From Candidatus Wallbacteria bacterium GWC2_49_35 (GTDB lineage: Bacteria > Muiribacteriota > UBA9980): 50,326 bases of DNA. Positions 2,744 to 49,980 of this stretch are shown here, one piece after another; position 1 is the stretch's first letter, and each line of letters starts with the position of its first letter. The translations under genes were made by a program, and so were the position numbers. The notes under the pieces are model-generated. The model searched no databases and was not told the DNA's origin. It saw only the letters and a program-made list of their open reading frames with translations. The DNA lies in the NCBI GenBank assembly GCA_001791795.1, contig MGFH01000206.1, positions 1 to 50,326 of the forward strand, written 5' to 3'.

Positions 2744-3758
2744 TCGAAGTTTTTCCCTTCCGTCCGGTGGTTTTTCCGCCTTGTCTGCCGCTCAGGAATT
2801 CCTCTGCGAGCCGGGATTTTTTGAGGCGCTCGAGGGCGTCTATTCGGGCGGAAAGGTCTTCGGCCGAGGTTATGCTGAATTTCACCGACAGCTCGTCTTT
2901 TTCAAAATAGGCGAAAGGGTTCACAGATATCCTGCGCGCCTCGAACTCGCCGGCAAGTTCCCTGAACCTGGCCATGGCGGTTTCATACATGGGACGCTTC
3001 AGAGCGTGGAGTTTTACGCGGATCGTCTCGGTTTTCTGGTTGGAGGTCATCTTAGCGTCTTCGATTATAGATGCGATACTGGCCATGGCCATTATTTCGC
3101 CGGCCGTTTTGCCGTACTGCATGGCGGTCTCGAATAAAAGCCGCGCCGTCTCGTTCAGCAGATTGGCTCCCATGCCCGTCGCCGCGGCCATATCCATGAA
3201 AGCGCGCTGCTCGTCGGAACTGAATTTGACGAGTTCGGCAGCGGCCTGAAGAGGGAGCTTGCCGTTGACCAGAGATGTTTTTGCGTCACCGATAAGCGCG
3301 CACAGTGAAGCGGACCTGTTGTAAACATATTCTGATTTCTGCATGCTCATCGCCGGCATATATTTTTCGATGACCACGGTCTTATCGTAAAAGGCCGACA
3401 GTTTTTTCAACGCCTCGCCTTCCTCGACCGGATTAAGTCCGCGTGAAGCGGCGTTTTCGGATATATTGAGCCAGAGCCGGTCCGCCGGCGCGAGGTCTTT
3501 GACGACAAGACATTTTATTTTGACGGAGCCGTCCGTCTGCGCTTGAGTGTTTTTTGCGATAATATCGAAGCGTTTGAAGCCGCTTATAATTTCAAAGCGT
3601 CCGCCGCTACGGCATACTATAAGCGGCGTGATAAGCCCGTTCGCCTCGATGGAAGCCCCGAGCGCGGGGTAAGCGCATTTGTGTGAGATCCTGCCGTTGC
3701 CGGCGTTTATTTCGCTGACGGGGATGAGTTCATATTCGTAGTCGGGATTTTTATACAT
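2736..3758 (-). CDS. ParB/Spo0J N-terminal (CTPase-fold) domain protein
   Basis: LGASIEANGLITPLIV...FEIISGFKRF and NISENAASRGLNPVEEGEAL match the ParB N-terminal boxes; helical C-terminal part; no parA adjacent. Confidence 0.8.
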   Translation of the reverse strand: MYKNPDYEYELIPVSEINAGNGRISHKCAYPALGASIEANGLITPLIVCRSGGRFEIISGFKRFDIIAKNTQAQTDGSVKIKCLVVKDLAPADRLWLNISENAASRGLNPVEEGEALKKLSAFYDKTVVIEKYMPAMSMQKSEYVYNRSASLCALIGDAKTSLVNGKLPLQAAAELVKFSSDEQRAFMDMAAATGMGANLLNETARLLFETAMQYGKTAGEIMAMASIASIIEDAKMTSNQKTETIRVKLHALKRPMYETAMARFRELAGEFEARRISVNPFAYFEKDELSVKFSITSAEDLSARIDALERLKKSRLAEEFLSGRQGGKTTGRKGKTSND

Positions 3759-4006: not shown

Positions 4007-4876
4007 ATGGATATTCTTATAAGCGGCGCCTCGGGATTTATAGGATCTAATCTCGCGAAATTTCTTTGCATGCACGGCGATTCCGTAAAGGCCCTTTCTA
4101 CGAGGGATTACGAGCTTCCGGACGCCGGGTTCGCCGCTAAAACCGCGGGCGCCGAAGTTATAATAAACCTCAGCGGCGCGGCCGTTAACGCCCGCTGGAG
4201 CGAAAGTTATAAAAAACTAATATATTCGAGCCGCGTCGATACTACCGCGAAACTCGTACGCGTGCTCAAAGCGTCCGCGCGCCGTCCGAAACTTTTCATA
4301 AACGCTTCGGCGGTCGGGATCTATACTTCCGGCGGAAGCCATGACGAGTATAAATTCGAATACGGCGGCGGTTTTCTCGCGTCGGTGTGCCGCGACTGGG
4401 AGGCAGAAGCCATGAAGGCTTGCGACGCCGGCGTGAGGACCGTTATTTTTCGCTTCGGTCTGGTCCTTGATAAAAAGGGCGGCGTCCTCAATAAAATGTT
4501 GATACCGTTTTCAATGGGTCTCGGCGGTAAAATTGGCGGAGGCGAGCAGTATATGAGCTGGATCGCGCTCGGCGATCTTTTGCGCGCCTTCCGCTTCGTC
4601 ATAAGCGACGAAAAACTCGAAGGCGTTTTCAACCTCACATCGCCCGCTCCCGTCACTAACGCCGAGTTCACAGCCGAACTGGCCGCTGCATTAAACCGCC
4701 CCGCTTTTTTCAGAGTTCCCGAGTTCCTGCTAAAATTAATATTTGCCGGCGGCGCTGAAATAATGTGCGAGGGTTCGGCGGTATATCCCAAAAGACTTTT
4801 AGACGCCGGATTCCAATTCGAGTATCCGCGGCTGAAAGACGCCCTGCTCCATATTATAAATGGCCCGGTCTCATAA
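4007..4876 (+). CDS. TIGR01777 family NAD-dependent epimerase/oxidoreductase (YfcH-like)
   Basis: ISGASGFIGS Rossmann motif, INLSGA, SRVDTT, FINASAVGIY, WEAEA, GEQYMSWIALGDL, NLTSPAPVTNAEF. Confidence 0.9.
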   Translation: MDILISGASGFIGSNLAKFLCMHGDSVKALSTRDYELPDAGFAAKTAGAEVIINLSGAAVNARWSESYKKLIYSSRVDTTAKLVRVLKASARRPKLFINASAVGIYTSGGSHDEYKFEYGGGFLASVCRDWEAEAMKACDAGVRTVIFRFGLVLDKKGGVLNKMLIPFSMGLGGKIGGGEQYMSWIALGDLLRAFRFVISDEKLEGVFNLTSPAPVTNAEFTAELAAALNRPAFFRVPEFLLKLIFAGGAEIMCEGSAVYPKRLLDAGFQFEYPRLKDALLHIINGPVS

Positions 4877-4928
4877 AGTTTTTCCTTTTCAGCCCGGCCC
4901 ATTAATTATTGAAAATATTGAAAATATC

Positions 4929-4957
4929 TTGAAATTCGGCTTGAAATATTATATAAT
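4929..4957 (+). promoter_or_regulatory. Putative sigma70 promoter of the ABC operon
   Basis: TTGAAA (4929-4934), 17 nt, TATAAT (4952-4957). Confidence 0.6.
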
Positions 4958-5014
4958 TCATTAGCACGCAAGTTATTCGGATCGGTCTCGCGCCGATTTT
5001 ATAAGGAATGTCAG

Positions 5015-6073
5015 ATGCCGCCTGGATCGAACCATAATCAGAACAACCAGACAGCCATAGAGGCTAAAAATCTTTTCAAGAGCTTCGGCGAGCCCTTCAC
5101 TTTGAAGCGGATCTTGAAACTTCCGTGGGAGATATTCTTAAGGCTTACCGGCGGTTACAGAAAAAAAAGCGTTTTAAAAGACCTGAGCTTCAGGGTGGAC
5201 GCAGGCTCCGTGGTGGGCTTTCTCGGGCCTAACGGCGCCGGCAAGTCGACGAGCCTCAAGGTCATGCTCAACCTTATCAGAAAAGACTCCGGCGAAAGTT
5301 ACATAGACGGTTATAACACCGAATACGATTACGACGCCGCGCTCAGGGCGGCTGGTGCCCTGGTAGAGCTTCCCGTTTTTTACGAATTCATGAGCGGCCT
5401 GGAGAACCTCGCCATAACCGCTAAAATCTATAAGCACATCACTCCGCGCGATATTGACGAAAGCCTTAAAAAGGTAGGGCTTTTCGAGCATCGTTTTAAA
5501 AAGGTCAGCCAGTATTCGACCGGAATGCGTCAGAAACTTTACGTGGCGAAGATCCTTCTCACCAATTGCTCCATAATAATACTCGACGAGCCGACATCGG
5601 GCATGGACCCGAAGGGGCAGGCCGAGATGCGCGAACTTATAAAGACCCTCGCGGCCGAAAAGAAAGCGACGGTCCTTGTTTCTTCGCACCTTTTGCACGA
5701 GATAGAACAGATTTGCGATTTTGTGGTCATCATCAAGGACGGCAGCGTCGTCACATACGGAAAGGTCAGCGATCTTCTGAGCACTGAACAGGAAATTTAC
5801 GAGGTAGAGGTGGAGCAGTCGCAGACCGAAACCTGCCTGAAGCACATTCTAAATCTCGAATATATAACCGGCGCTTCGCTCAAAATCAGGGCCAACGCCA
5901 ATTTCATAGAGATCAGGCTGGGGAAGGAAAGCGTGCCGCGCGCGCTGAAAGAACTTGTCGATAAAAATTTCGAAATATTCAATTTCGTAAAAACCAAACG
6001 CAGCCTGGAGAATTTTTTCCTGGAAGTCACAGGCGACGGTTCCGAAAACTCCGCAAAACAGCAAACTCAATAG
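5015..6073 (+). CDS. ABC-2 type exporter ATP-binding subunit
   Basis: Walker A GPNGAGKS, signature YSTGMRQK, Walker B IILDEPTSGMD, H-loop SSHLLHE. Confidence 0.93.
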   Translation: MPPGSNHNQNNQTAIEAKNLFKSFGEPFTLKRILKLPWEIFLRLTGGYRKKSVLKDLSFRVDAGSVVGFLGPNGAGKSTSLKVMLNLIRKDSGESYIDGYNTEYDYDAALRAAGALVELPVFYEFMSGLENLAITAKIYKHITPRDIDESLKKVGLFEHRFKKVSQYSTGMRQKLYVAKILLTNCSIIILDEPTSGMDPKGQAEMRELIKTLAAEKKATVLVSSHLLHEIEQICDFVVIIKDGSVVTYGKVSDLLSTEQEIYEVEVEQSQTETCLKHILNLEYITGASLKIRANANFIEIRLGKESVPRALKELVDKNFEIFNFVKTKRSLENFFLEVTGDGSENSAKQQTQ

Positions 6074-6127
6074 CGCGGCCGGCAAACGCCGCGCCGATAT
6101 TAAAAATTAAGGATTCAAGGCCCGATT

Positions 6128-6991
6128 ATGTTCGACATTCTAAGATACGAGTTATATAAGATGCAGAGGCTCAAAAAAGTTTATTTTTGCGCCTTCGCCA
6201 TAAATTTCCTTCCGATTATGATACTGTTCGTGCTGACGGTGCTTTTTTTCAAAGGCATCATTTACAGGGATTTCGGCATGATGCAGCAGATGTTCGTCAA
6301 GGAATTCGGCAGCGGCATCATGGGCGTCCTCGTCGTTCTGCTGAGTTTCTTTTCATGGTCGAGCTGGTTCTTCCAGACTATAATCGCTGGCGAACTCATA
6401 TCGAAGGAATTCGAGAATAAATCGATCAAGCTGATGCTGCTTATGCCGTTCAAGCGCCTTACGATCTATCTCGGAAAACTTTTAAGCACGATAGTTTTTT
6501 TCGTGGTCAACCTCGCCATCTATCTCAGCTTGTGTGCGCTCATCGGCGTCGCGCTCGACAGGGTCTTCGGGTTCAAGGTTTTCGCGCTTATCGATTATCA
6601 GCTTCTTATAAAGATCTGTAACGCATACTTCGTGATAAATTTTTCTTACATCGCGCTCGTTTTTCTGGTGTCCATTTTCGCGCGTTCGGCTGAATCCACG
6701 ATGGCTTTCACTATATTCGCGACATTCGCGCTTAAGCTGATCGACAACGTCATTCTGCTGTTCGGCAAGCTCGATATCATCCCTTATTATATAGCCGATA
6801 AGATCGTCAACTATTCATACCTGAAATCCTGCGAGGTCATTAAATATGAAAAACTAGTAAAAATGGCGGAAACCGGCGATTACGCGAATATGCCTCTGGC
6901 GTTCGACATGCTCGGAATAAATATACTTTATTCGCTGGCGTTTTTATATATCGGCTATCAGGTTTTTAAGAGAAAAGAAGAAAAAGGATAA
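6128..6991 (+). CDS. ABC-2 type exporter permease
   Basis: About six TM helices; ISKEFENKSIKLMLLMPFKRLTIYLGKLL is the typical ABC-2 permease loop. Confidence 0.85.
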   Translation: MFDILRYELYKMQRLKKVYFCAFAINFLPIMILFVLTVLFFKGIIYRDFGMMQQMFVKEFGSGIMGVLVVLLSFFSWSSWFFQTIIAGELISKEFENKSIKLMLLMPFKRLTIYLGKLLSTIVFFVVNLAIYLSLCALIGVALDRVFGFKVFALIDYQLLIKICNAYFVINFSYIALVFLVSIFARSAESTMAFTIFATFALKLIDNVILLFGKLDIIPYYIADKIVNYSYLKSCEVIKYEKLVKMAETGDYANMPLAFDMLGINILYSLAFLYIGYQVFKRKEEKG

Positions 6992-6996
6992 TTAAT

Positions 6997-7464
6997 ATGT
7001 TGAAAATGCTTGACGGATTGAAGTTCTGGGGTATAAACCCCGACCTTCTATTCGTGTTTCCGTATAACGCGATAGCCGGAGCGCTGGCGGCGTATTTACT
7101 TTATTACCTTTTCAGGCATGCCATTTTCATCATGAAGCGCAATGAACTGGAAAGGAATTTAATTAAATTTCCAGGGCTCGCTGAAGTGCGCGCGCAGCTG
7201 GGCGATTTGAATTTCGATAAAAAATATTACCGCGCCGCCCGAATTTATTACGCTCAGGCGATAGATATGCATCCGGGACTTCATTACGCCCGGCTGAGGC
7301 TCGCTGAAATTCATTTCATGTCGGGCGAAACCCAAAAGGCGCTCGAACAGATGAGCGAGCTTTTAAAACGCACCTCCGAAGAAAAATATAAATACGGCGT
7401 TAAAATGCTCATGAGCAAATGGGCCGTCCCGCCTGAAGTTATTTCCGGAATAATGAATTCATAA
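6997..7464 (+). CDS. Membrane-anchored TPR protein
   Basis: N-terminal hydrophobic helix, then TPR-like helices (LGDLNFDKKYYRAARIYYAQAI, LAEIHFMSGETQKALEQM); starts 5 nt after the permease stop. Confidence 0.7.
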   Translation: MLKMLDGLKFWGINPDLLFVFPYNAIAGALAAYLLYYLFRHAIFIMKRNELERNLIKFPGLAEVRAQLGDLNFDKKYYRAARIYYAQAIDMHPGLHYARLRLAEIHFMSGETQKALEQMSELLKRTSEEKYKYGVKMLMSKWAVPPEVISGIMNS

Positions 7465-7489
7465 AAAACGTTTTTATCGAGTCTAAATA

Positions 7490-7530
7490 TAAAAAAGAAC
7501 CTTGGTTTCATGCTTCAAGGTTCTTTTTTT
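7490..7530 (+). terminator. Rho-independent terminator (bidirectional type)
   Basis: AAAAAAGAACCTTG / CAAGGTTCTTTTTTT stem with A- and T-tracts. Confidence 0.85.
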
Positions 7531-7678
7531 ATATCGCGCGTCCGTTAAACTTTTTCTTCTTTATGACGATATGTTAATAAAATATATTATAACGGCCTGA
7601 ATACGGCGGCCGTATATTTTATTTGCTTTGATGTGGTTAATATTATTTATTAAATAAAAAGAAGGTAGATGAGAGATT

Positions 7679-8455
7679 ATGAACGCGACTAAAAAATTCG
7701 GGAACCTTATCCGGCCTGCGGTTGTTATTGGAATTTTACTTGCGGCGTTTTTTCTGACGGCCGGCACCGCCGCAGCGGACCCTTCGCTAGCCGGACCCAC
7801 GGGACTTTTTCTGAGCCCTTCTCCGGCGGTCTGCAAGCCCGGCAAATTCAGCGGCGGGCTTTATCTGCAGAACTATTCGATACAGCGCGCCGCCTCAACC
7901 AACGAGCGGAGTTTGATTGTGAACGGCCTTTACGGCATCTCGCGCGTCGTCGAAGTCGGCTTCAGCAAATCGCTCGATTCAATGCAGAGTTCCTTCGACC
8001 CTGGTCTCTCGCTCAACCTCAAGTATCTGTTTCCGGACAGCAAGGCGCTTAAAGTCGCCGCGGGCCTCGTTATCGAAACCGACAACAACTCATACAGCTC
8101 GGCTTATCTGGTCGCCGGCCAGGAGATCGCGTACTTCGGCATGGGCGTTAACTTCGGAGGGCACAGGGCCTATCCGATGAATAAATCCCACTACGGCGGA
8201 TACGACTTTTCCGAGATGGCGCCGAACAATTTCTTTTTCATCGCCGGCGCGAATTTCGACCTTAAAGTAGCGAATCTGACCGTCGAATATAACAGCGACG
8301 CTTTCAGTTTCGGCTTCAGAGTGCCTACCGTCGACGGTTACAGCGTTAATCTGGCGTATATCAGCGATTCTGATTACGATCTGGTTCACCGCAATGTTTA
8401 CGGCGACAGTTATAAGCGTCAGAAAGTCACGCTGGGCGTGACCGGCACGTTTTAA
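7679..8455 (+). CDS. Exported outer-membrane beta-barrel protein, YjbH-like
   Basis: Signal peptide (LLAAFFLTAGTAAA-D), GPTGLFLSPS motif typical of YjbH-type N-termini, alternating beta-strands, C-terminal aromatic residue (VTGTF). Confidence 0.6.
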   Translation: MNATKKFGNLIRPAVVIGILLAAFFLTAGTAAADPSLAGPTGLFLSPSPAVCKPGKFSGGLYLQNYSIQRAASTNERSLIVNGLYGISRVVEVGFSKSLDSMQSSFDPGLSLNLKYLFPDSKALKVAAGLVIETDNNSYSSAYLVAGQEIAYFGMGVNFGGHRAYPMNKSHYGGYDFSEMAPNNFFFIAGANFDLKVANLTVEYNSDAFSFGFRVPTVDGYSVNLAYISDSDYDLVHRNVYGDSYKRQKVTLGVTGTF

Positions 8456-10926
8456 CCTTGATTATCCTTATTTATAAGTTTTTGAAGAGTCCTTACAAGT
8501 TCGTTGATTTTGAAAGGCTTGGTTATATATTCCTTGAAACCGGCCTTTTCAAAATCTTCTATTTTAGACTGGTCGCTGAAATAGCCGCTGGCGGCTATGG
8601 CCTTTACTTCCGGGTCGAACCGGATTATATTCTGAAGCATTTCTACGCCGCCCATTCCGCCCGGCACCGTCAGATCGGTTATCACGGCGTCGAACGGCGC
8701 GCCCGAATCGAGAGCGGCCTTATAAATTTCGAGCGCCTCTGCGCCGTCGGCTGCGGTCATAGTTTCAAACCCCAGATGGTTCAATAACTGAGAAGTTATA
8801 TTTCTGATGAGTTCCTCGTCGTCCATTATCAATATTTTCCCATTCATTACCGCTTTTTTTTCTTTAGCCGTCGAAGGCCTAGCTTCGGTTTTCAATTCCG
8901 CCGCTGTGCCGTCAGCGGCCGGCAGGTAAATCGCGAAAGTCGCGCCAGTGCCCGGTTTTGAATCGACAGTGATGAGGCCGCCGTGGCTTTTTATTATGGA
9001 GTAGACCGACGACAGGCCGAGCCCGTTGCCCCTGGCCTTGGTCGTAAAATAAGGGTCGAATATCTTGGCGAGGTTTTTTTCTTCGATCCCGCTTCCGTTA
9101 TCGCTGAAAGTCACTCTGACGTAACGGCCTTTGGTTAAAGGCAGCTTTTCGCCGTCTATACTTACGTTTTTGGCGACGACCTTTATCGTTCCGCCGCCCG
9201 GCATGGCCTGGATGGAATTTATGACGAGGTTCGATACCACCTGGTTTATCTGGCTGACGTCGATCTCGGCCGACGCGAGTTTATCGCTGATATCGAATTC
9301 GCATTTTACGTTCGAGCCGCGCGCCATGAAACTGATCGAGTTTTTAAGCAGCTCGCCGATGTCGGCGAGTTTTTTATTCGCGGTGCTTCCCTTCGCGAAA
9401 GTCAATAGCTGCACGGTCAGTCCCTTGGCCTGAAAAGATATGTCTTCGGCGCTCGTAAGTATCTTGTGTATTTCGTCCTCAGGGGAAGCCAGCATTTTAG
9501 CCAGCGATATGTTTCCGACTATGCCGGTGAGAAAATTATTGAAATCGTGCGCTATGCCGCTGGCCAGAAGGCTCAGAGATTCGAGTTTGCTTATCTTCAG
9601 CAGTTCCTCTTCTATTTTTTTCTGTTCGCTCATATCGCGGAAGGCGAGTATCGCGCCTATGATCTTTTCTCCCCTGTCGCGGATCGGCGCGCAGGTGATC
9701 GAAGCGAAAATTTCGTGCCCGGTATTCGAAATAATTTTCGTGTGGTGGCCGAAAACGACGATCTCGCCGTTTTTTATCGATACGCTCGCCGGGTTTTCTA
9801 TCCTGCTTCCGGTGCTTGAATTGAACAGGCGGAACGCTTCGTCCAGGTCCATTCCGGCGGCGATTTCAGAGGTCAGCCCGACGATCGACTCCGCCATGGA
9901 GTTGATGAGGGTAATTTTTCCGAGGTTGTCGACCGCGATCACGCCTTCGCCAATGCTGCGAAGCGTTACAGCGAGCCTTTCCTTTTCGGACGCGAGGGAT
10001 TCTTCGGCGTTCTTACGCTGGACTATCTCTTTTTCGAGTTTGTAATTGGCGTTCGCCAGTTCGAAAGTGCGGTCCCTGATGATCGTTTCGAGATTATCGT
10101 TTATGGCCTGCAGTTCTTCCTCCGCGCGCTTGCGCTCGGTGACGTCGAGGCCTACCGCCTGATATTCTTCTATGAGTGAATTTTCGCCGAAAACGGCGAG
10201 AAATGTCCATTCCAGCCATCTTTTTTCTCCGGTGGCGGAATTCATGATCAGGTGTTCGAATGCGGCGATGCGGTTGTCTTTTCCAAGAGATGCCAGGCGG
10301 CAGCGGATCGGCTCGCGGCATTCGGCGGGCGCCTGCGATTCGAATTTTTTTCCGGTGAATTTTTCGGAGTCGCCGTTGAAATAACGGCAATAGGCGCCGT
10401 TTACGAAAGTGATGCCGCCGTCGGCGCCGAAGCGGCAGATTAGCTCGGTCTGGCCTTCGACTATCGCGCGGTAGCGTTCTTCGCTGATCCTCAGCTCTTT
10501 TCTGCGTTCGCGCTCGAGTTCCATTAAAAGCCGCTGGCGCTCGAAAGCATAGCGGATCGAGCGTATGAGGACCTTGCCGTCCACGCCTTCCTTGACGAGA
10601 TAGTCCTGTGCGCCTTCCGAGATCGCGCGCGCGCCGGTATGATAATCGTTGGTGCCCGTCAGGACTATGATAGGAATTTCACCGGAATATTTTTTGACGC
10701 TTATGAGAGTGTCAATGCCGGTGCTGTCGGGAAGAAGAAGGTCCAGCAAAATGATGTCGTAATTGCAGGTTGAAAGGCTTTCGGCGGCTTCCTTTAAAGC
10801 GGCGCAGGAGAACATCTCAAAGTTAATATCTTCGCGTTTGAGCATTTCCCGCAGAAGCATGACGTCTCCGGGATTATCTTCGACAAGAAGAATTTTAACG
10901 GGCCCCTCAAACATCGCGTCTCCCAA
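8452..10926 (-). CDS. Hybrid sensor histidine kinase/response regulator (REC-PAS-PAS-HisKA-HATPase-REC)
   Basis: LLVEDNPGD...LLDLLLPD REC; two PAS-like regions; H-box IAHDFNNFL; NLVINSIQAM, DNGSGI, FDPYFTTK, GNGLGLS; C-terminal REC IMDDE...VITDLTVPG. Confidence 0.93.
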   Translation of the reverse strand: MGDAMFEGPVKILLVEDNPGDVMLLREMLKREDINFEMFSCAALKEAAESLSTCNYDIILLDLLLPDSTGIDTLISVKKYSGEIPIIVLTGTNDYHTGARAISEGAQDYLVKEGVDGKVLIRSIRYAFERQRLLMELERERRKELRISEERYRAIVEGQTELICRFGADGGITFVNGAYCRYFNGDSEKFTGKKFESQAPAECREPIRCRLASLGKDNRIAAFEHLIMNSATGEKRWLEWTFLAVFGENSLIEEYQAVGLDVTERKRAEEELQAINDNLETIIRDRTFELANANYKLEKEIVQRKNAEESLASEKERLAVTLRSIGEGVIAVDNLGKITLINSMAESIVGLTSEIAAGMDLDEAFRLFNSSTGSRIENPASVSIKNGEIVVFGHHTKIISNTGHEIFASITCAPIRDRGEKIIGAILAFRDMSEQKKIEEELLKISKLESLSLLASGIAHDFNNFLTGIVGNISLAKMLASPEDEIHKILTSAEDISFQAKGLTVQLLTFAKGSTANKKLADIGELLKNSISFMARGSNVKCEFDISDKLASAEIDVSQINQVVSNLVINSIQAMPGGGTIKVVAKNVSIDGEKLPLTKGRYVRVTFSDNGSGIEEKNLAKIFDPYFTTKARGNGLGLSSVYSIIKSHGGLITVDSKPGTGATFAIYLPAADGTAAELKTEARPSTAKEKKAVMNGKILIMDDEELIRNITSQLLNHLGFETMTAADGAEALEIYKAALDSGAPFDAVITDLTVPGGMGGVEMLQNIIRFDPEVKAIAASGYFSDQSKIEDFEKAGFKEYITKPFKINELVRTLQKLINKDNQG

Positions 10927-24399: not shown

Positions 24400-25158
24400 T
24401 TATTGCGCGTCGGCTTTCCTGGTAAGTTCATTTATCAATATATTCAATTTCGAATATATTTCTTTGATCTCTTCGCAGGTTAGCACCGTATTACTTTTTT
24501 TGAGGTTGATGATGTCGTTGATCGAATCGTAGGAAACGCCGAACTGTTCCTTCAGATAAAGCATGACTTCGGATATTTTGGAAAGTTTGCGGCCGGATTT
24601 ATATTCAATGAAAAGCCTGATGGTAGAAAGAAGTTCAGGAATATATTTTATGAGCGCGTTATACATGTTGAACTCGTCGGGAAACATGGTTATGAAATCG
24701 TTCCTGAGTTTAAGCGAGAAATTCCTGAGTTCCTGCTCGCAGTGAAGGCGGATGTTTTCATCGGGAATGACGAGGTCGGCGAGAAGGTCTTCGCCGGCAA
24801 GGACTATATAATTGTTTTTTATTTCCAGAAATTTAACCGGGAAAACGTCCGCCGATAAAAGGATTTCTTCGAACGTCATTATCAGCGGGACCATTTTCAG
24901 TTCGGCGGCCGCCGTCTGAAGGGGAACGTGTAGTTTTTCAAGAAGGCCTATTCCGGCTTCAGAGGGTATGATCAGCAGCTCGGCCGTTGAAACGCCTTCG
25001 CGAAATCCATCGTTTAAAATATTGCCGTACAGCACCAGACATCTGAAATCGTCCTCTTTCATGATCGCGTCTACGGCGCCGATGAAATTGACGAGTTTTT
25101 CAGTGAATTCGCCGCTCCGTTTGAGCGATTTGATCTTTTCGATATAATTTGCGTTCAT
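24400..25158 (-). CDS. Nucleotidyltransferase-fold protein with degenerate active site
   Basis: ATG at 25158 with GGAG RBS (ORF track extends to a TTG at 25209); LVLYGN...VSTAELLII, LLSADVFPVKFLEIKNNYIVLAGEDLL, IRLHCEQELR. Confidence 0.65.
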   Translation of the reverse strand: MNANYIEKIKSLKRSGEFTEKLVNFIGAVDAIMKEDDFRCLVLYGNILNDGFREGVSTAELLIIPSEAGIGLLEKLHVPLQTAAAELKMVPLIMTFEEILLSADVFPVKFLEIKNNYIVLAGEDLLADLVIPDENIRLHCEQELRNFSLKLRNDFITMFPDEFNMYNALIKYIPELLSTIRLFIEYKSGRKLSKISEVMLYLKEQFGVSYDSINDIINLKKSNTVLTCEEIKEIYSKLNILINELTRKADAQ

Positions 25159-25210
25159 TTGTCTCCATCCGTATATTTTTATAAATAAGTTACTGTGATA
25201 TTGGCCCAAA

Positions 25211-25247: not shown

Positions 25248-27962
25248 TTATTCGCTGATCCGTCCGCTTCTGTTGTTCTGCATTATGATCATCGCCTCGT
25301 CGGGTGTCACGATAGTGTTCTGTATGGCGTTGACGGGCACTCCGAGGGTGTTGTTGAAGCCGGAATACGCCGTATCCATGAGGCGTGACGAGCCTTCTTC
25401 GATGACGACCTTCTTGAACAGGGTCGAAAGCGAAGTGTTTATGAAAAGCGATCCAAGGTCGTCGCCTGCGAGAACGGTCGAATCCGGCATCAGCTGTTCT
25501 TCGATCGTCGAGTTGACCTCGTTTTTGTAATGCGAATAAATTTCGGTTTGGGCTTTTTTAGGGGCTTCTCCGAACAGTTTTTTGAGCTGCTCTTTGAATT
25601 CGAGTTTGCCCTCGTCGTTATAGCGCATCTGGCTGAGCTGTTTGGAGGCGAATTCCGAGTACATAACACTCGTCCAGCTGTTGCCGTATTTGGAGAGCAT
25701 CTGCTTTTCGGCTTCGGCGTATATCCGGTCGGAGGCTTTTATAATTTGAGCGTCGGAAGCGCCGGTGGAGCGCATTTCGTTAATTTTAACGTTTACGACC
25801 TTTGCCTTGTAAACTGAAGGAGAGATACGCGCCGCCTGGAATTCAATTGCGCGCAGTTCCTGAGGTGTAAGCTCGCGGCCGTTCTGGGCGAATTCTTTGA
25901 GGGATTCCATGCTGTCGATATTTTTGCCGTCCGCGCCTTTTACCATGCGCCCCTTGTCTATTTTGTCGTCTATGGCGGCGAGTTCCAGGCGGGCCTTTTC
26001 GTAGGCGATTTTGTTCTGGTTGGCGATCTCGGTTTGGGCTATATTCGTAAGCTCGGCATCGTTCATGTTCTTATAAGTATCGCTTGATTCGCGCATTTTT
26101 ACCTTGAAGGCCTTCAGATAATTTTCCTGGCCCATGATGCGGGCGTATTCGAGGTTGCGGTCGAGCTGCTGCTCTTTTATATAGTTCTGCTTTACGTTTT
26201 CCATCAGTTTGAGGTTATCGGGAAGTTTCTGCGCCTCGACGGCCCGTATTTCGAGTTTGGCGGCGTCGCGCTCGAGTTTACCGATCTGGCTGTTGAAAGC
26301 GTTCTTATCGCGGGCATATTTGGCTACGTCGGTATATTTTGACGGATCGGGCTTTTGCGTTTCTTTCATGGTTTCGATCTGCTGGCGCATTTCTCCCGCT
26401 TCGCGCCATTCCTTCGACTGCGAGCGGTAGCGTTCCTGCAGCGCCAGTTTATCGCGCTGTGGCTGGTCTATGAGTTTTTCTTTGCCGAGCGACACGCCGA
26501 GCGATACGCTCTGAACGGCGAAGTTGGTGACACCGGCTTCGAGCCCTTTTTTCCAGGGATTAATCGAGTCGTTCTGCGTCTGGAGCCTCTTTACCTCGTT
26601 ATCGTAATAATAATACGGGACGCTTCCCGGTTTGTATTTATCGCGCTCGGCGGCGACATCTTTCGCTTTGTCCTGTATGTAATGCTTTTCAAGCGTGGCG
26701 CGCGCGCTGCCGTTTAGAAATGCCGTGGGATTGGACGTGACCCAGTTGGCTATGGCGCCGGCCTTGCCGGTGTTGCCGAAGAGTTTAAGAGATGCGAGGT
26801 TCGCCGCTTTCGAATTGGCCGCGACGCCGGACATGGAAGCTCCCAGCGCACCGGTTATGAAAGATGAAAGCGCCGCGCGCTGAAGGTCTTTTTTGAAATC
26901 GGCCGTCGAATAATCCTGCGACTTCATTTCGTCGATTTCGATGGAGATCTGGTTGAGGCGGGCTTTTTCGGCGTCGGTGAGCGGGACTGAGCCCGGTTCG
27001 GCGTGCCTGTCGAATATCTGCTGCGCCTCTTTCTGAAGCGCGCTTATCTTTTCGTCGTAATGAAAGTAATTATCGGCCCAGGCTTTTTTAACCAGGCCGC
27101 CTGCGCCTGCCGATATTCCCTGACCCAGAAATTGCACGGCCGCGCCGCGAATGGCGTTTTGTATAATGACCTTCGACGAAGCCTTGCCGAACGTAGAAGC
27201 CAGGCCGCCGGTTGCCATGGTGAATGGCGCGAGTATGCCGTCGGTAACCGCCGCGACCGACACGTCGCGAAGAATTTCCATTGACGTTTTTTTCTTGTCT
27301 CTGAATTTATTAGAGCGTTTTTCGAACAGATAAGTTATCGAGCCTGAAGTTACCGCGCCGATCACTATCGCGCCGATTATGAGACCGGCCATCGGAAGCG
27401 CGGCGATAGAAGCGAACGCGAGAACGGCCGCCGTCGGGATTATCGATTTGGCGAGGCCCCAGGCGATCTTTTCGAGAAGCGACATATTCTTGCCGCCGGG
27501 AATTATATCGTCTTTTACTTTTTCAACGACGCTGCCGGCTAACTGACCGCCTTTTTCGAGAACCGTTTCGGCGATGCCGTCGATGGATGGCGCCGCGCCC
27601 GATGCAGATTTCGCGTTTTCGGCGCTTATCTGATCGTATTCAGCCTTCAATCTGGCGTACTGGTCGAACGCCTCGCCGCCTTCGGGCGAGTTTTCGCGTC
27701 CTTCCTGCAGAAGCGAAATATACCTTTGATAAGCCGCATTCATTTTTGTGTAGGTTTCAGTAGCCGCGGCGTTTGATTGCGGGGCGGGCGATGAAGCGGC
27801 CGAAGTCGCGGCCGCGGAAGCGTTCTGAGCGTTAGCGGCGCTCTGGGCCATCAAAGCGTCGACGCCGCAGGCGGTCAGAAATGTCGTGACGATGGTGATA
27901 ACGGTTAAAAACCTGAACAGGCCTCTTAATTTTTTGCTGCTGTAAAATTCTGACATTTTCAT
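25248..27962 (-). CDS. Large hypothetical lipoprotein with Gly/Ala-rich hydrophobic hairpins and coiled coils
   Basis: 904-aa ORF; lipobox LTAC at residue 32; hydrophobic segments at about residues 165-215, 235-295, 360-385 and 475-495; helical C-terminal half. Confidence 0.8.
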   Translation of the reverse strand: MKMSEFYSSKKLRGLFRFLTVITIVTTFLTACGVDALMAQSAANAQNASAAATSAASSPAPQSNAAATETYTKMNAAYQRYISLLQEGRENSPEGGEAFDQYARLKAEYDQISAENAKSASGAAPSIDGIAETVLEKGGQLAGSVVEKVKDDIIPGGKNMSLLEKIAWGLAKSIIPTAAVLAFASIAALPMAGLIIGAIVIGAVTSGSITYLFEKRSNKFRDKKKTSMEILRDVSVAAVTDGILAPFTMATGGLASTFGKASSKVIIQNAIRGAAVQFLGQGISAGAGGLVKKAWADNYFHYDEKISALQKEAQQIFDRHAEPGSVPLTDAEKARLNQISIEIDEMKSQDYSTADFKKDLQRAALSSFITGALGASMSGVAANSKAANLASLKLFGNTGKAGAIANWVTSNPTAFLNGSARATLEKHYIQDKAKDVAAERDKYKPGSVPYYYYDNEVKRLQTQNDSINPWKKGLEAGVTNFAVQSVSLGVSLGKEKLIDQPQRDKLALQERYRSQSKEWREAGEMRQQIETMKETQKPDPSKYTDVAKYARDKNAFNSQIGKLERDAAKLEIRAVEAQKLPDNLKLMENVKQNYIKEQQLDRNLEYARIMGQENYLKAFKVKMRESSDTYKNMNDAELTNIAQTEIANQNKIAYEKARLELAAIDDKIDKGRMVKGADGKNIDSMESLKEFAQNGRELTPQELRAIEFQAARISPSVYKAKVVNVKINEMRSTGASDAQIIKASDRIYAEAEKQMLSKYGNSWTSVMYSEFASKQLSQMRYNDEGKLEFKEQLKKLFGEAPKKAQTEIYSHYKNEVNSTIEEQLMPDSTVLAGDDLGSLFINTSLSTLFKKVVIEEGSSRLMDTAYSGFNNTLGVPVNAIQNTIVTPDEAMIIMQNNRSGRISE

Positions 27963-44307: not shown

Positions 44308-46227
44308 TTAATTTTTAACGGCCGGCATTTTGGGAAGCGTAATTACGATGCCTTTTCTGGCTTCATCGTAAGATTTGGTGCCCGTCGTGTCCTTGCCGTA
44401 GAAGTCGTCGTAGGCGAATCCATAAACCCTGTTGCCGATAGCTTTTTCGTGGAGGATTTGCGCGTAAACGTTGAACTGTCCGGCGTTTATTGTATTGGTC
44501 TTATAAAAATCCCTGCTCATATCGGCCTGGCCGAAAACGCCTCTGTTCAAAGCCGCGCATATGAAAGCGTGAAGTTTGTTGACCGCGGGCGTTTTGTTGT
44601 TTGGCAGCGGTTCGCCGTCGCACTTGAATACCATTTTGGAACCGGGTTTAGAAGAGATGGTTCTCGTTTCAAGTATGGTCTCTGAGTTCGGCTTTCTTAT
44701 GTCGATTTTAAAGGAGCCGTCGGTCTGCACTTTTCCCCTGAAGTTCCAGTCGTAAGTGACATTCAGCTCGTTCGTGCCGTAATGGGCCCATGAATTGGCG
44801 ATGGAGCTCGACAGATAATCATCAAATTTCGTCAGGTTATAAGGGGCGCTGACACGCATGATATTGCCTTTGGCGTCTTTTATCACGCAGTCTTTCCAAT
44901 TGTCAGTGCGTTTTAAGAATTCGTTCGCTACATCGTCGTTGCTCGCGACTTCGAATCCTCTGTCCGCGACGTCGCTATTGAATTTCAACTTGAACGCTAT
45001 GCCTAAAAAATCCACCACGGTTGTATTGAGCGTTACCTGGCCGTCGCAGGTCAGCTCGTATTTATCGAATATCGTATTTCTATCCAGATCAGGGTTGTCC
45101 GCCGAAGGCTCCTGGAGGGAGTTGGCTATTTTGTCAACTCCGATATGGCCCTTTTTTCCGAGAAAAATATAGGATTTGCCGGAGATCATGCATTTGAACG
45201 GCTGAGTGTATTTATATTTGGTTACGCCGTTTTCGATCGTAGCTATGCTCGAGAGGCTGAAGCAGAAATTGGCGGCCGCATTCGTGTCGAGTATATTGAC
45301 CATGTCTTTTTTGTTGATATCGAAATAATAGAATTTACCATGGTCGTCTTTGCCGGTAACGGCTAAATAAATGTTTTCGGCTTTATAAACCTGCGTGTTG
45401 TTTTCGATCGAAACGGAAAAACCGTCGACAGCGGCGTTTCCGGCTAATATTTGCGTCGTTATGACGCCGGGTGCCGCCGACACGCCGGATGCGGATGCGA
45501 ATTCATGGCCCTGCTTGCCCGCGCTTATTGAATGGTCCTGTTCCGGGGCCACGCCGTAAAAAAACGTTACGCCGCTATCGTAAGTGGCGGGCGCGTTCCA
45601 GTCGATTGTTGCGGAGGCCGTCTGATGGCCTCTGGCTTCGTAGGCGGGAGAAGCCGTTCCGACGCCGGTTTTACTGAGCGAAACTTCCACGCTCGCATCC
45701 TCCGGGCCTGCCAAAAGCGGAAAAACGTCGGTGATCACGCTGATATAGGCCTTGGCGGGATCGAACGGATGGCCCGGGCCGAAATAAAGCGTCCATTCTT
45801 TCTGTGAGATCTGCGTGATCGAATGCCGTTCATTGGAATCGACGGTGAATATGGTGACGGCTGGAATATAGCCTTCGGCCGAGCTTGCTATTTTATATCT
45901 GCCCGGCCCGACGCCGCCGAACGAATAGCTTCCATCGGCTCCGGTGACGGCGGTTTTATAAACGCCTGCGCCTGATATGCCGCCTTCGGGATCGGAGGTC
46001 AGAATGCAGTTGATACCGCTTAGAGCCAGCCGGCTTACCGGGCTTTTTATCGTGCCTTTTACTTCGTATAATGAGTCGGCGCCGTTTCCAACGCCGAAAA
46101 TTTCGTCGCTTTCGTCGAAAGCGCAGCCGGAATGGAAGAACAAGGCTGAAGCCAGTAAAAAAATCGCCAATAAACTGATACCGTTTTTTAAAAATTTTAA
46201 TAATTGATTTTTCCGCATCATGATCAT
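44308..46227 (-). CDS. Putative lipoprotein: carboxypeptidase-regulatory-like beta domains plus GH64 beta-1,3-glucanase
   Basis: Signal peptide ending SGC; TGADGSYSFGGVGPGRYKI; GH64 motifs FDKYELT, NTTVVDF, CAALNRG, NVYAQILH...VYGFAYDD. Confidence 0.75.
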   Translation of the reverse strand: MIMMRKNQLLKFLKNGISLLAIFLLASALFFHSGCAFDESDEIFGVGNGADSLYEVKGTIKSPVSRLALSGINCILTSDPEGGISGAGVYKTAVTGADGSYSFGGVGPGRYKIASSAEGYIPAVTIFTVDSNERHSITQISQKEWTLYFGPGHPFDPAKAYISVITDVFPLLAGPEDASVEVSLSKTGVGTASPAYEARGHQTASATIDWNAPATYDSGVTFFYGVAPEQDHSISAGKQGHEFASASGVSAAPGVITTQILAGNAAVDGFSVSIENNTQVYKAENIYLAVTGKDDHGKFYYFDINKKDMVNILDTNAAANFCFSLSSIATIENGVTKYKYTQPFKCMISGKSYIFLGKKGHIGVDKIANSLQEPSADNPDLDRNTIFDKYELTCDGQVTLNTTVVDFLGIAFKLKFNSDVADRGFEVASNDDVANEFLKRTDNWKDCVIKDAKGNIMRVSAPYNLTKFDDYLSSSIANSWAHYGTNELNVTYDWNFRGKVQTDGSFKIDIRKPNSETILETRTISSKPGSKMVFKCDGEPLPNNKTPAVNKLHAFICAALNRGVFGQADMSRDFYKTNTINAGQFNVYAQILHEKAIGNRVYGFAYDDFYGKDTTGTKSYDEARKGIVITLPKMPAVKN

Positions 46228-47685: not shown

Positions 47686-49980
47686 ATGGTGATAGATATG
47701 ATAATAAAATCCAAAATTAAACTTACCTTTATAGCATGCGTTTTCACTGCTATGTTTTATTTAATTTTATCACTGCCGGGCGCCGCTTTCGGGGCTGATG
47801 ACGCCGCAGGCGCTTATCAGCGTTATCAATACGACTATGAACAGCTGAAAAAAGCCGTGGAATCAGGCGTCGGCTCTGACGTGGTTGAAAAACTGGCCCG
47901 TAAATACTCCGATTCGCTGAACGCATATAAAAAAGCCGCGGGCGGCGCTGAAACGCCCCCGAATGAATCATCCGCTCCCGCCGCCGCCGCTGGAGCGGCG
48001 GCCGACGCTTCCGGCGAAAGCGCCTCTCAGGCGGCTGCCTCGCAGGATCCCGATTCACTTATAGCCGGCTTGCGCTGGAAGGCGCAAACCGCTCTGCTGC
48101 CCGCCGGAAAAGCCGAGGCGCGTATCGAACTTGCCATGGCTCTTCTACTACATAAAAACGACGCCGCCGGGGCCTCTAAACTTCTTAACGAAGCCATATC
48201 GCTTCTGCGTACAGCCGCCGTGGCCGATGGCGCAGCTAAACTGCTCGAAAAGATCTCGAAACTTCAAAAGGCCATAAAACTTCGCACCGAATTATCCGTG
48301 AAATACGCCGCCATGCAGCAGAAGAAAAAAGCGGCCGACGCGGTTTCATGGCTCGCGCTCCCGCTCAAAGCGGCCCGAAAAGCACAATATTACGCCGCCT
48401 CGATCTCTTACCGCAAAACCCTCGCCGAATACTGCGCCGCGCTCGAAGGTAAAAACATCATATCGGCCTTCCTTTCGCCGGGCGAAAACCCCGAACGACT
48501 CGCCGCTCCCGCCAAGATCGTATTCATCCTTCTTGACGGCGTGCGCCAGGACGTTTTTCAAAAGCTGCTCGACGAAGGAAAATTGCCTAACATCAAAAAG
48601 ATCGCCGATAATGGCGTATATATCCGTAACGGCGTGTCCGTTCTCCCTTCGACCACCGGCCCCGCATACGCGCCGTTTGTCATGGGCCTCGGCCCCGCTA
48701 AATCCAAACTTTCGGGTATCAGGCTTTTTGACCGCGTTACCGGCACCTACCGCGTTTATTGCGGCACCGATAACGCTAAGATCAACGACGACGCAGCTAA
48801 AGAATTTCCAACCATATACGAGCTGCTCTCCGATAAAAGCACGCTTACTGTCTTCGGCATGGTTGACCGCGGCGTCGCTAAAAGCGGCGTGCCCTGGATC
48901 CAGGTCGCATACAATAAACTCACCAAAGATTATAATAAAATGGATTCATCCCTCGTCGATCGCTTCCTTAAGGAAATGAGCAACGGCATACCCGTGTTCT
49001 CGTTCATATCGCTTCACTCGCCCGACTCCAACGGCCATAGCTACGGCGCTAATTGCGAATATTGCCAGGCGATAATATTCGAAGACTCCCTCGTCGGCCG
49101 CATCGTCGATCATATCGAGGCTTCAGGCGAACGCGGCCGCGTCAGCTTCGTCATTTCATCCGACCACGGCCTGGCCTCCACTACCAGAAGTTTCGACGTC
49201 GACGCCGCCCTCGCCGAAGACCTTAAAATGAACGCATACCACTCGATCCCTCGAAACACCATCGATTTCAACCTGTTCAAATCGCGCTTTAAAAACGACA
49301 TAATTACCGCCGTGTCAGGCAATGCGTGCGTGCTTGTTTATGTTAAAAAGCCCGGCGCGTCAACTTTCGCCGACCGCCCCTCCGAAGCCGAACTTCGCTC
49401 ATACCCCGATCGCCTCCGTAAAAACCGCGTCGATCTTATCGCTTATTTCGCTTCGCAGCCCGGAATACGCCACGTGCTTTACCGCGGCAACGCCGGCCAA
49501 TATTTCGCCGAAACCTCAAACGGCAAAGCACTTATCAAAAGAAACGCCGGCGGCTTTTCATACAGCGTCGTAAGCGGCGCCGACCCGTTCGGCTACGCTT
49601 CGTCACCTAACGCCGCGGCGCTTACTGACGGCGCATTCCATACCGCCGATGAATGGCTCGCCGCCACAGGCCCGCTCGATTACCCCGACGCGCCCAACCT
49701 CATTGCCGACCTGCTCGATTCAAACTGCGGCGGCGATATAGTGCTTCTCGCCGCGCCCGATTACGAGCCGTGGAACGAAGGCCAGAAAGGCGTTCACGGA
49801 AACCTTTCTTACGACCAGATCAAAGTACCCATAATATTCTCCGGCCCCGCATTCAAAACAGGCGCCGTTATTGAATCCGCCCGCACCGTCGACGTATTCC
49901 CGACCATGCTTCGCGCGCTCGGCCGCGAAATCCCCGCCGCTATCGACGGTAAGATCATTCCAGGCGCGCTTAAATATTAA
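47686..49980 (+). CDS. Secreted alkaline-phosphatase-superfamily (NPP-type) phosphodiesterase with helical N-terminal extension
   Basis: Signal peptide; ILLDGVR, SVLPSTT (Thr nucleophile), SPDSNGH, SSDHG, GVHG, RTVDVFPTML. Confidence 0.85.
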   Translation: MVIDMIIKSKIKLTFIACVFTAMFYLILSLPGAAFGADDAAGAYQRYQYDYEQLKKAVESGVGSDVVEKLARKYSDSLNAYKKAAGGAETPPNESSAPAAAAGAAADASGESASQAAASQDPDSLIAGLRWKAQTALLPAGKAEARIELAMALLLHKNDAAGASKLLNEAISLLRTAAVADGAAKLLEKISKLQKAIKLRTELSVKYAAMQQKKKAADAVSWLALPLKAARKAQYYAASISYRKTLAEYCAALEGKNIISAFLSPGENPERLAAPAKIVFILLDGVRQDVFQKLLDEGKLPNIKKIADNGVYIRNGVSVLPSTTGPAYAPFVMGLGPAKSKLSGIRLFDRVTGTYRVYCGTDNAKINDDAAKEFPTIYELLSDKSTLTVFGMVDRGVAKSGVPWIQVAYNKLTKDYNKMDSSLVDRFLKEMSNGIPVFSFISLHSPDSNGHSYGANCEYCQAIIFEDSLVGRIVDHIEASGERGRVSFVISSDHGLASTTRSFDVDAALAEDLKMNAYHSIPRNTIDFNLFKSRFKNDIITAVSGNACVLVYVKKPGASTFADRPSEAELRSYPDRLRKNRVDLIAYFASQPGIRHVLYRGNAGQYFAETSNGKALIKRNAGGFSYSVVSGADPFGYASSPNAAALTDGAFHTADEWLAATGPLDYPDAPNLIADLLDSNCGGDIVLLAAPDYEPWNEGQKGVHGNLSYDQIKVPIIFSGPAFKTGAVIESARTVDVFPTMLRALGREIPAAIDGKIIPGALKY

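Follow-up and report, generated by a model that had tools for sequence, protein, structure and literature searches.

A predicted tyrosine-rich alpha-helical hairpin recurs near the ends of unrelated exported proteins in Candidatus Wallbacteria and beyond and may serve protein-protein association

Dockerins (PF00404) consist of a duplicated Ca-binding loop-helix (F-hand) motif and bind the beta-sandwich cohesin, whereas SLH domains (PF00395) occur as a triplet that binds a pyruvylated secondary cell-wall polymer. Other exported proteins carry a sorting domain, such as the C-terminal domain (CTD) of the type IX secretion system (T9SS), a C-terminal beta-sandwich of 70-100 residues found in Bacteroidota-type hosts. 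Among small helical elements, TPR and Sel1-like repeats (CL0020) form contiguous arrays, usually of three or more, in which repeats of 34-36 residues are stacked as a solenoid, and the hairpin of the adaptors MexA and MacA docks on OprM/TolC. Here we describe a module of about 45-50 residues that resembles each of these in some respects. It was noticed in a window of DNA of 50,326 nucleotides (contig MGFH01000206.1, positions 1 to 50,326, assembly GCA_001791795.1) from Candidatus Wallbacteria bacterium GWC2_49_35, where a Tyr-rich, predicted helical segment is located close to the N-termini of two unrelated exported proteins, a lipoprotein-type membrane protein of 904 residues (protein A) and a phosphodiesterase of 764 residues (protein B).

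The first-pass annotation of the window had pointed out the likeness of two segments, and both are indeed encoded where it had placed them: TYTKMNAAYQRYISLLQEGRENSPEGGEAFDQYARLKAEY corresponds to residues 70-109 (27755-27636, minus strand) of protein A (open reading frame, ORF, 25248-27962, minus strand), and AYQRYQYDYEQLKKAVESGVGSDVVEKLARKYSDSLNAY to residues 43-81 of protein B (ORF 47686-49980, plus strand). The pairwise similarity of the two segments had been named beforehand as a test, and it is not significant: BLASTP gave E=22 for the relevant alignment, and the Smith-Waterman score of 35 compares with 24.8 +/- 5.1 for 5000 shuffles, 4.9% of which reach it (p=0.05). As neither pairwise test was significant, profiles were used. 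The 48-residue segments were searched against all six-frame ORFs of the source genome (3.67 Mb in 253 contigs, a 77%-complete assembly); each segment alone retrieved further copies, and a whole-genome profile search yielded 17 copies of the module, belonging to two subtypes, A and B. When the profiles of the subtypes were compared with hhalign, a probability of 93.4% and E=2.4e-7 were obtained over 50 columns, in a register (Y2, Y9, G19, Y-x6-Y) that is exactly the one proposed by the first-pass annotation. Reversed and column-shuffled profiles served as control for helical or compositional bias: against a score of 34.3 for the real pair, the reversed profile reached 12.9, and the best of 200 column-shuffled ones 16.7 (mean 8.8, sd 2.0). 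A MAFFT alignment of all 16 segments independently arrived at this register too, and a small protein on contig C76 is matched by the hidden Markov models (HMMs) of both subtypes. A family HMM made from 78 sequences, mostly proteins of other organisms, also matched both proteins in the ORF set of the genome (protein A, E=8e-13, residues 62-119; protein B, E=1.4e-9). The two segments are thus very probably copies of one homologous domain family, as judged by these profile comparisons. That two amphipathic, Tyr-containing helical stretches resemble each other by chance, without homology, might be read from the weak pairwise figures, but there is next to no likelihood left for it once the profile-profile E value with its clean controls, the independent MAFFT register and the matches of both segments to an HMM built mostly from foreign proteins are considered; at the family level, chance resemblance is refuted by hhalign, its controls and the family HMM matches.

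In the source genome, subtype B always begins a few residues past the signal-peptide cleavage site. Its seven carriers are the phosphodiesterase of the window, a phospholipase D (PLD)-like protein with two HKD motifs, a C39 cysteine peptidase with two tandem copies, an SH3b-SH3b-M23 peptidase, an HExxH protein, a 536-residue protein of unknown type and a 154-residue protein that is hardly more than the module. Subtype A is found at the extreme C-terminus of proteins with a hydrophobic body of glycine-zipper type (on contigs C44, C23, C49 (twice), C101, C88 and C145), the exception being protein A of the window, in which the module is located near the N-terminus after a lipobox. On the minus strand of contig C88, a PLD gene whose product has an N-terminal subtype B module (7690-10023) is followed by the gene for a 504-residue glycine-zipper protein with a C-terminal subtype A module (6151-7665). 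The two co-oriented genes are separated by 24 nt in the source genome and by 3 nt in a congener (L096:2418-4778 and 4782-6356), and the pair is probably conserved and co-translated. A further tandem pair encodes proteins of 270-310 residues (C49, 6625-7440 and 7690-8619, minus strand; L095:1770-2591 and 2825-3754; also L008), which are built from a signal peptide, a block of about 120 uncharged residues rich in Gly, Ala and Val, one transmembrane helix, a KKK cluster, a Ser/Thr/Pro linker and the C-terminal hairpin; this pair is kept throughout the family, and in a second family of the phylum such proteins are encoded singly.

Outside the source genome, each of the eight other genomes of the same bacterial family contains 12-24 copies of the module, the second family of the phylum has 5-11 and the remaining families have 0-4. 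When subtype B alone is counted (E<=1e-5), the first family has 2-9 copies and the second 0-3. When a library of 1.84 billion representative proteins was searched with a profile, 83 proteins scored E<=1e-3, 78 of them with a clean module, and many of these 78 belong to a better-conserved mainstream subfamily with the consensus AYQxYIAAYNKLTxLMxxGKGDTPEAQxAYxEYKxAKxxYE. Scanning 185,579 species genomes for the mainstream subfamily located 26 loci with organism names, which include archaea (Micrarchaeota, Iainarchaeum and Woesearchaeota of the DPANN group, Methanosarcinales and Methanotrichaceae) and bacteria (Planctomycetaceae/Phycisphaerae, Victivallales, Dehalococcoidia, Bipolaricaulota, Desulfobacterium and a few Proteobacteria). 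The module had been thought to be specific to one lineage, a view that does not survive the finding of a conserved subfamily in DPANN and methanogenic archaea, Planctomycetota, Dehalococcoidia and others: it is not lineage-specific, although the lineage of the window shows a strong expansion of it. Proteins of 130-140 residues in DPANN archaeal metagenome-assembled genomes (MAGs; L098, L099, L102) consist only of a hydrophobic helix at the N-terminus and a C-terminal hairpin, connected by a short polar linker, and represent a minimal membrane-tethered form of the module.

Within its carriers the module is biased towards the ends. The first copy begins by residue 75 in 32 of the 78 representatives, typically at residue 27-52 just past the signal peptide, and the last copy ends 12 residues or fewer from the C-terminus in 45; a terminal module in either sense is present in 69, compared with about 31 expected under uniform placement, while the nine representatives with internal copies only usually have them in tandem. 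At the 26 named loci, the C-terminal position dominates. Most carriers have a single copy; where copies stand in tandem, Gly/Ser/Thr/Pro linkers 5-37 residues long connect them. A crude Kyte-Doolittle test detected a hydrophobic N-terminal segment in 57 of the 70 representatives that start with Met, and most of the rest look fragmentary; judged from this test and from the translations of proteins A and B, the module-bearing proteins are of the Sec/lipoprotein-exported type, with a signal peptide or a lipobox in front of the mature part. Pfam domains found elsewhere in the carriers are CBM96, disaggregatase repeats, PLD, cohesin, dockerin, FecR, polysaccharide deacetylase, LamG, PA14, SH3b, M23, C39, Phosphodiest and Gly-zipper. 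This survey bears out the earlier suggestion of a portable module joined by flexible linkers to unrelated extracytoplasmic cargos, and further copies directly after signal peptides, which a profile was expected to retrieve, were found in the genome as well as among the representative proteins. In four orthologue pairs the module is aligned without gaps, and identities of module versus adjacent linker amount to 38/25, 82/58, 52/36 and 98/73%; the module is, however, less conserved than the catalytic domains, which are 71% and 93% identical between orthologues.

When the segment of protein B was submitted to AlphaFold2 together with the alignment of 78 sequences, two helices (4-27 and 31-51) connected by a three-residue turn were predicted, with a mean predicted local distance difference test (pLDDT) score of 87.5, values of 94-97 in the core and a predicted template modelling (pTM) score of 0.69. 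The helical hairpin proposed at first sight is therefore also what the structure prediction returns, and the module is predicted to be an autonomous antiparallel alpha-helical hairpin. Its consensus reads A-Y-x-x-Y-x-A-A-Y-N-x-L-x-x-L-M-x-x-G-x-G-D-T-P-E-A-x-x-A-Y-x-x-Y-K-x-A-K-x-x-Y. Near-invariant positions follow a 3-4 spacing, in helix 1 at Y11, Y14, Y18, L/Y21 and L24/M25 and in helix 2 at A38/Y39, Y42, A45 and Y49, and Ala residues flank this stripe; the spacing suggests a zipper of Tyr (or Phe/Leu) against Ala between the helices. From what is generally known of helix capping, a Gly C-cap and then an S/T-P-E N-capping box can be read in the turn G28-x-G-D-T-P-E34. A Cys at column 48, at the end of helix 2, is present in eight segments, and all eight have a second Cys just before helix 1; these segments belong to a small number of related proteins from archaea and Dehalococcoidia and amount to about two independent cases. 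The constant pairing of the two Cys supports the hairpin and an oxidising location, and such hairpins are likely to be disulfide-stapled across their open end in an oxidising compartment. They occur, each with exactly two Cys, as tandem copies of the YECP...KACYE and GCTYEQY...KACYE types in Methanotrichaceae and Dehalococcoidia (L111, L112, L114, L118, L120), where the proteins also have regions of CBM96/disaggregatase type or type I dockerins at the C-terminus. For the tandem pair of the C39 peptidase (contig C203, residues 28-158), AlphaFold2 predicted two hairpins (pTM 0.57) and a disordered linker (pLDDT<50).

No model of Pfam-A (2025) or NCBIfam (June 2026) covers the module when whole carriers, or isolated segments at E<=1, are searched, the isolated segments giving scattered sub-threshold matches to generic helical families only. 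A single weak match to the NCBIfam model MXAN_5187_C_dom (NF041621) was discarded as this domain is not present in the source genome. A profile search of all PDB sequences yielded nothing beyond designed helical proteins and a vinculin loop (GKGDSPEA) matched by chance, a word-index protein search with the module region returned seven matches, all of them named hypothetical protein and without Pfam assignment on the module, and a full-text literature search for strings of the module motif found no paper. The domain family is new to the copies of Pfam and NCBIfam searched.

Compared with the systems named at the outset, the module is closest in its use to the dockerin/cohesin pair, with which it shares the small terminal format (about 60 residues), flexible linkers, attachment to many different secreted enzymes and several copies per genome; tethering by protein-protein docking, as in dockerin, is the functional analogy proposed here. 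Unlike a dockerin, it is a Tyr/Ala alpha-hairpin without a Ca-binding motif, and there is no relation in sequence or fold. A few family members bear true cohesin or dockerin domains elsewhere in the chain, and the Dockerin_1 matches seen in two carriers lie off the hairpin (for instance the C-terminal DADGDGKLSVLDAL in L114/L118). With SLH, LysM and SH3b the module has in common a length of about 50 residues, an N- or C-terminal position on secreted enzymes or surface proteins and occasional repetition, but it is mostly single and its hosts include organisms, archaea among them, that lack the polymers to which SLH domains bind; the SLH HMM matched none of the 78 full-length carriers and none of the 78 segments. 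TPR and Sel1-like repeats likewise consist of two antiparallel helices with Ala/Tyr in a 3-4 pattern, and hmmscan of the 78 segments gave TPR_6 in eight (best E=0.028), TPR_2 in two and TPR_14 in two, all far under gathering scores. The module is longer (about 48 versus 34 residues), has the conserved G-x-G-D-T-P-E turn and occurs singly or in copies spaced by disordered linkers. Membership in TPR arrays was rejected, as the matches are below thresholds and tandem copies are separated by linkers and not stacked. LPXTG, PEP-CTERM, GlyGly-CTERM and T9SS CTD signals are comparable in that many carriers have the module at the extreme C-terminus, on diverse cargos and in many copies per genome, whereas the module is also N-terminal and internal and is found in archaea and bacteria. 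No NCBIfam sorting-domain model matches module carriers or segments. Tripartite sorting signals of the LPXTG, PEP-CTERM and GlyGly-CTERM kind have a short motif, then a hydrophobic transmembrane segment and a basic tail at the very C-terminus. Such a signal was dismissed, since C-terminal modules end 0-12 residues from the stop codon in a hydrophilic stretch (...YEQIAKSLK) that leaves no room for a transmembrane segment, and a T9SS CTD was dismissed as well, given that the module is predicted as two helices without strands, that there is no NCBIfam or Pfam CTD match and that the hosts include archaea. Rop-type four-helix-bundle dimers, designed homo-oligomers (5J0K, 8D06) and the MexA/MacA hairpin have the same gross geometry as the module, but there is no sequence relation, Foldseek E values are at least 0.14 and the geometry of a two-helix hairpin is generic.

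Any function assigned to the module has to explain a small self-folding hairpin with a free chain end and a flexible tether, at times repeated like beads on a string, placed on unrelated exported proteins in many copies per genome, in hosts with unrelated envelopes that have only Sec/Tat in common. The reading that we favour, with a probability of roughly 35-40%, is that the module serves tethered protein-protein association, hairpins packing into four-helix bundles. Hairpins on the same or on different proteins would pack on one another as four-helix-bundle-like units, the pairing would bury the partly exposed aromatic/Ala stripe of each hairpin, and as a result carriers would be oligomerised or secreted enzymes would be held by carriers that have the same module and are bound to the membrane or the surface; the module itself would not be read by a secretion machine. 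Several observations are consistent with this association. The best structural matches of the tandem-pair model are four-helix bundles (query TM-score, TMq, 0.55-0.63 over the full length, E>=0.14), which gives indirect support. A Foldseek search with the single hairpin retrieved generic hairpins only (TMq 0.71-0.78, root-mean-square deviation 1.3-2.1 A over about 50 residues, non-significant at E>=0.33), and the best among them, designed homo-oligomerising hairpins and the MexA docking hairpin, are likewise consistent with association. So are the presence of the module on membrane-embedded proteins and on secreted enzymes of one genome, the adjacent genes for the PLD (subtype B) and the glycine-zipper protein (subtype A), and the high copy number of 12-24 per genome across the family.

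Several points weigh against association of hairpins. The Foldseek matches are non-significant (E>=0.14), the tandem model is only of moderate confidence and AlphaFold2 tends to compact tethered helices. The conserved positions (the a/d-type Tyr/Ala stripe, the Gly C-cap and the S/T-P-E N-cap) are explicable by fold stability alone, and no conserved binding surface is evident on the module. In carriers of the glycine-zipper type, the module comes after a basic cluster (RKK/KKK) that lies behind the last hydrophobic segment, and by the positive-inside rule these copies could be cytoplasmic, on the side opposite to the secreted subtype B. Three genomes of the phylum with 5-8 modules have no subtype B at E<=1e-5, and an obligate partnership of subtypes A and B is excluded by genomes with subtype A only.

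One idea of the first-pass annotation, in which the module would act near the N-terminus as a signal that sorts proteins into a lineage-specific route of export or display not described before, would fit the position of the module at the predicted mature N-terminus in all seven subtype B carriers of the genome and in 32 of the 78 representatives, and also the expansion of the family in these bacteria. Against it, the module is C-terminal in 45 of the 78 and internal only in nine, it is often in tandem, it is found in archaea and many bacterial phyla, and C-terminal copies are followed by no hydrophobic or basic tail. Secretion machinery is not linked to it either at the window genes, where the flanks of both contain no secretion genes and the neighbours encode pyruvate:ferredoxin oxidoreductase, GlyQS, an iron-containing alcohol dehydrogenase (Fe-ADH) and a GH64 glucanase, or in a relative (L095), where the region between module genes encodes GalU-like, phosphoglucomutase-like, metallo-beta-lactamase (MBL)-fold and unknown membrane proteins and no secretion system. 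A module that occurs at either terminus, internally and in archaea as well as bacteria does not behave as a dedicated secretion signal would, and this function is very unlikely. A better case, though still a doubtful one, can be made for an envelope anchor, in which the hairpin would bind a non-homologous surface component (an S-layer protein, a sheath, a glycan or a lipid head-group) and retain enzymes as SLH or LysM domains do. The terminal position on flexible linkers and the joining to secreted hydrolases and carbohydrate-binding proteins would suit such an anchor, as would the proteinaceous surface layers of many host lineages (DPANN, methanogens, Planctomycetota, Dehalococcoidia). On the other hand, the host lineages have no envelope polymer in common, a conserved patch on the exposed surface is not seen, the module is similar to neither SLH nor LysM nor any carbohydrate-binding module and no receptor candidate co-occurs, the inter-module region of the relative holding sugar-nucleotide and unrelated genes.

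The module might also be a passive structural element without a specific partner, namely a stable helical cap, a spacer, a folding or solubility aid or a pro-segment of hydrolases. All of its conserved residues are of the kind that the fold itself needs, it is less conserved than the catalytic domains, and several of the N-terminal carriers are peptidases, which often have pro-segments; we nevertheless consider a passive role unlikely in view of the strict terminal placement on long flexible linkers, the tandem arrays resembling beads on a string, the use on non-enzymes and membrane proteins and the maintenance of 12-24 copies per genome. It is quite improbable that the two amphipathic helices open on the bilayer as an in-plane membrane binder and hold PLD, phosphodiesterase or membrane proteins there. 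The amphipathic 3-4 pattern contains much Tyr, which is favoured at membrane interfaces; phosphodiester hydrolases account for two of the carriers and membrane proteins for many, but a closed hairpin is predicted confidently, its turn is conserved, the Cys pairs would lock it shut and many carriers (those with CBM96, cohesin, PA14 or LamG) are unconnected with lipids. With respect to the association of hairpins favoured above, its most far-reaching form would be an undescribed display system of uncultured bacteria and archaea, independent of cohesin and dockerin, in which hairpins on glycine-zipper or single-transmembrane anchors and on enzymes zip into four-helix bundles, oligomerise the anchors and hang changeable hydrolases and binding proteins on the surface, with A-B pairs giving specificity in the lineage of the window; we regard this extended version as a speculative and unlikely one.

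The features of the two window proteins are compiled in Table 1. As had been proposed, the module of each follows an export signal near the N-terminus, a lipobox LTAC (Cys32) in protein A and a putative cleavage site between AAFG and ADD in protein B, and is flanked by Ala/Ser/Pro-rich low-complexity sequence. The span first noted in protein A (27636-27755) falls within the module as now delimited (27612-27770), which is close to the widespread consensus AYxxYIAAYNKLTxLMxxGKGDTPEAxxAYxEYKxAKxxY (matching stretch ...AAYQRYISLLQEGRENSPEGGEAFDQYARLKAEY). Protein A has no Pfam or NCBIfam family match, and orthologues of 902-927 residues with a match to the module are present in all eight genomes of the same family. 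An ORF encoding 269 residues, with a TTG start (24400-25209, minus strand) is located 38 nt downstream on the same strand, has no Pfam match at E<=1e-5 and is possibly co-transcribed with protein A.

Table 1. Features of the two module-bearing proteins of the window
Feature	Positions	Strand	Basis
Protein A, 904-residue lipoprotein-type membrane protein, module near N-terminus	25248..27962	-	ORF
Protein A, predicted lipoprotein signal peptide, residues 1-32, lipobox L-T-A-C (...FLTAC, Cys32)	27867..27962	-	read from translation
Protein A, Ala/Ser/Pro/Gln-rich tether from lipobox Cys to module, residues 33-64	27771..27866	-	composition
Protein A, Tyr-rich alpha-hairpin module (predicted), subtype A, residues 65-117	27612..27770	-	genome profile search, E=1.4e-15
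Protein B, 764-residue secreted type I phosphodiesterase / nucleotide pyrophosphatase-like	47686..49980	+	ORF; Pfam Phosphodiest, 2.1e-26
Protein B, predicted Sec-type signal peptide, residues 1-36, ...LPGAAFG/ADD	47686..47793	+	read from translation
Protein B, Tyr-rich alpha-hairpin module (predicted), subtype B, residues 37-89	47794..47952	+	genome profile search, E=1.1e-14
Protein B, Ala/Ser/Pro/Gly-rich flexible linker, residues 90-125	47953..48060	+	composition; least conserved part between orthologues, 25% identity versus 38% in the module
Protein B, second shared helical region, about residues 126-252	48061..48441	+	phmmer match to PLD-type paralogue
Protein B, catalytic phosphodiesterase / alkaline-phosphatase-superfamily core, residues 279-519	48520..49242	+	Pfam PF01663

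In protein B the module begins at the predicted mature N-terminus (A1 subtype HMM, E=5.2e-19) and is kept in an orthologue from another MAG (L013) that is 59% identical; weak PafA-like NCBIfam matches extend to residue 759. When residues 95-275 were compared with the genome by phmmer, the PLD protein on contig C88 was matched at its residues 135-288 (E=7e-9), the aligned part of protein B being residues 99-252 (window 47980-48441). A motif of this second shared region, SW[LF]..P.K......YY.....YRKT.AE, was recognised by eye also in module-bearing proteins on contigs C179 and C145; the region has no family assignment. The phosphodiesterase and the PLD protein, as their alignment indicates, share an N-terminal region of about 250 residues, made up of hairpin, linker and helical region, behind which different phosphodiester-hydrolase cores are placed. 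The GH64 beta-1,3-glucanase encoded near protein B (44308-46227, minus strand) has a CarboxypepD_reg-like domain and is a secreted hydrolase without the hairpin module.

In the lineage of the window, 12-24 genes per genome bear the module, and the end pieces of these carriers have all been without annotation. Definition of the domain would give a name and boundaries to a recurrent part of exported proteins now called hypothetical in groundwater and sediment bacteria, DPANN and methanogenic archaea, would allow the catalytic parts of the carriers to be parsed better and would point to a candidate principle of surface assembly that works across very different envelopes. If the module is a passive helical cap, it is merely another family of the domain-of-unknown-function (DUF) type. 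If hairpins pair specifically, it would provide a very small, genetically encodable docking tag that can be stapled by a disulfide.

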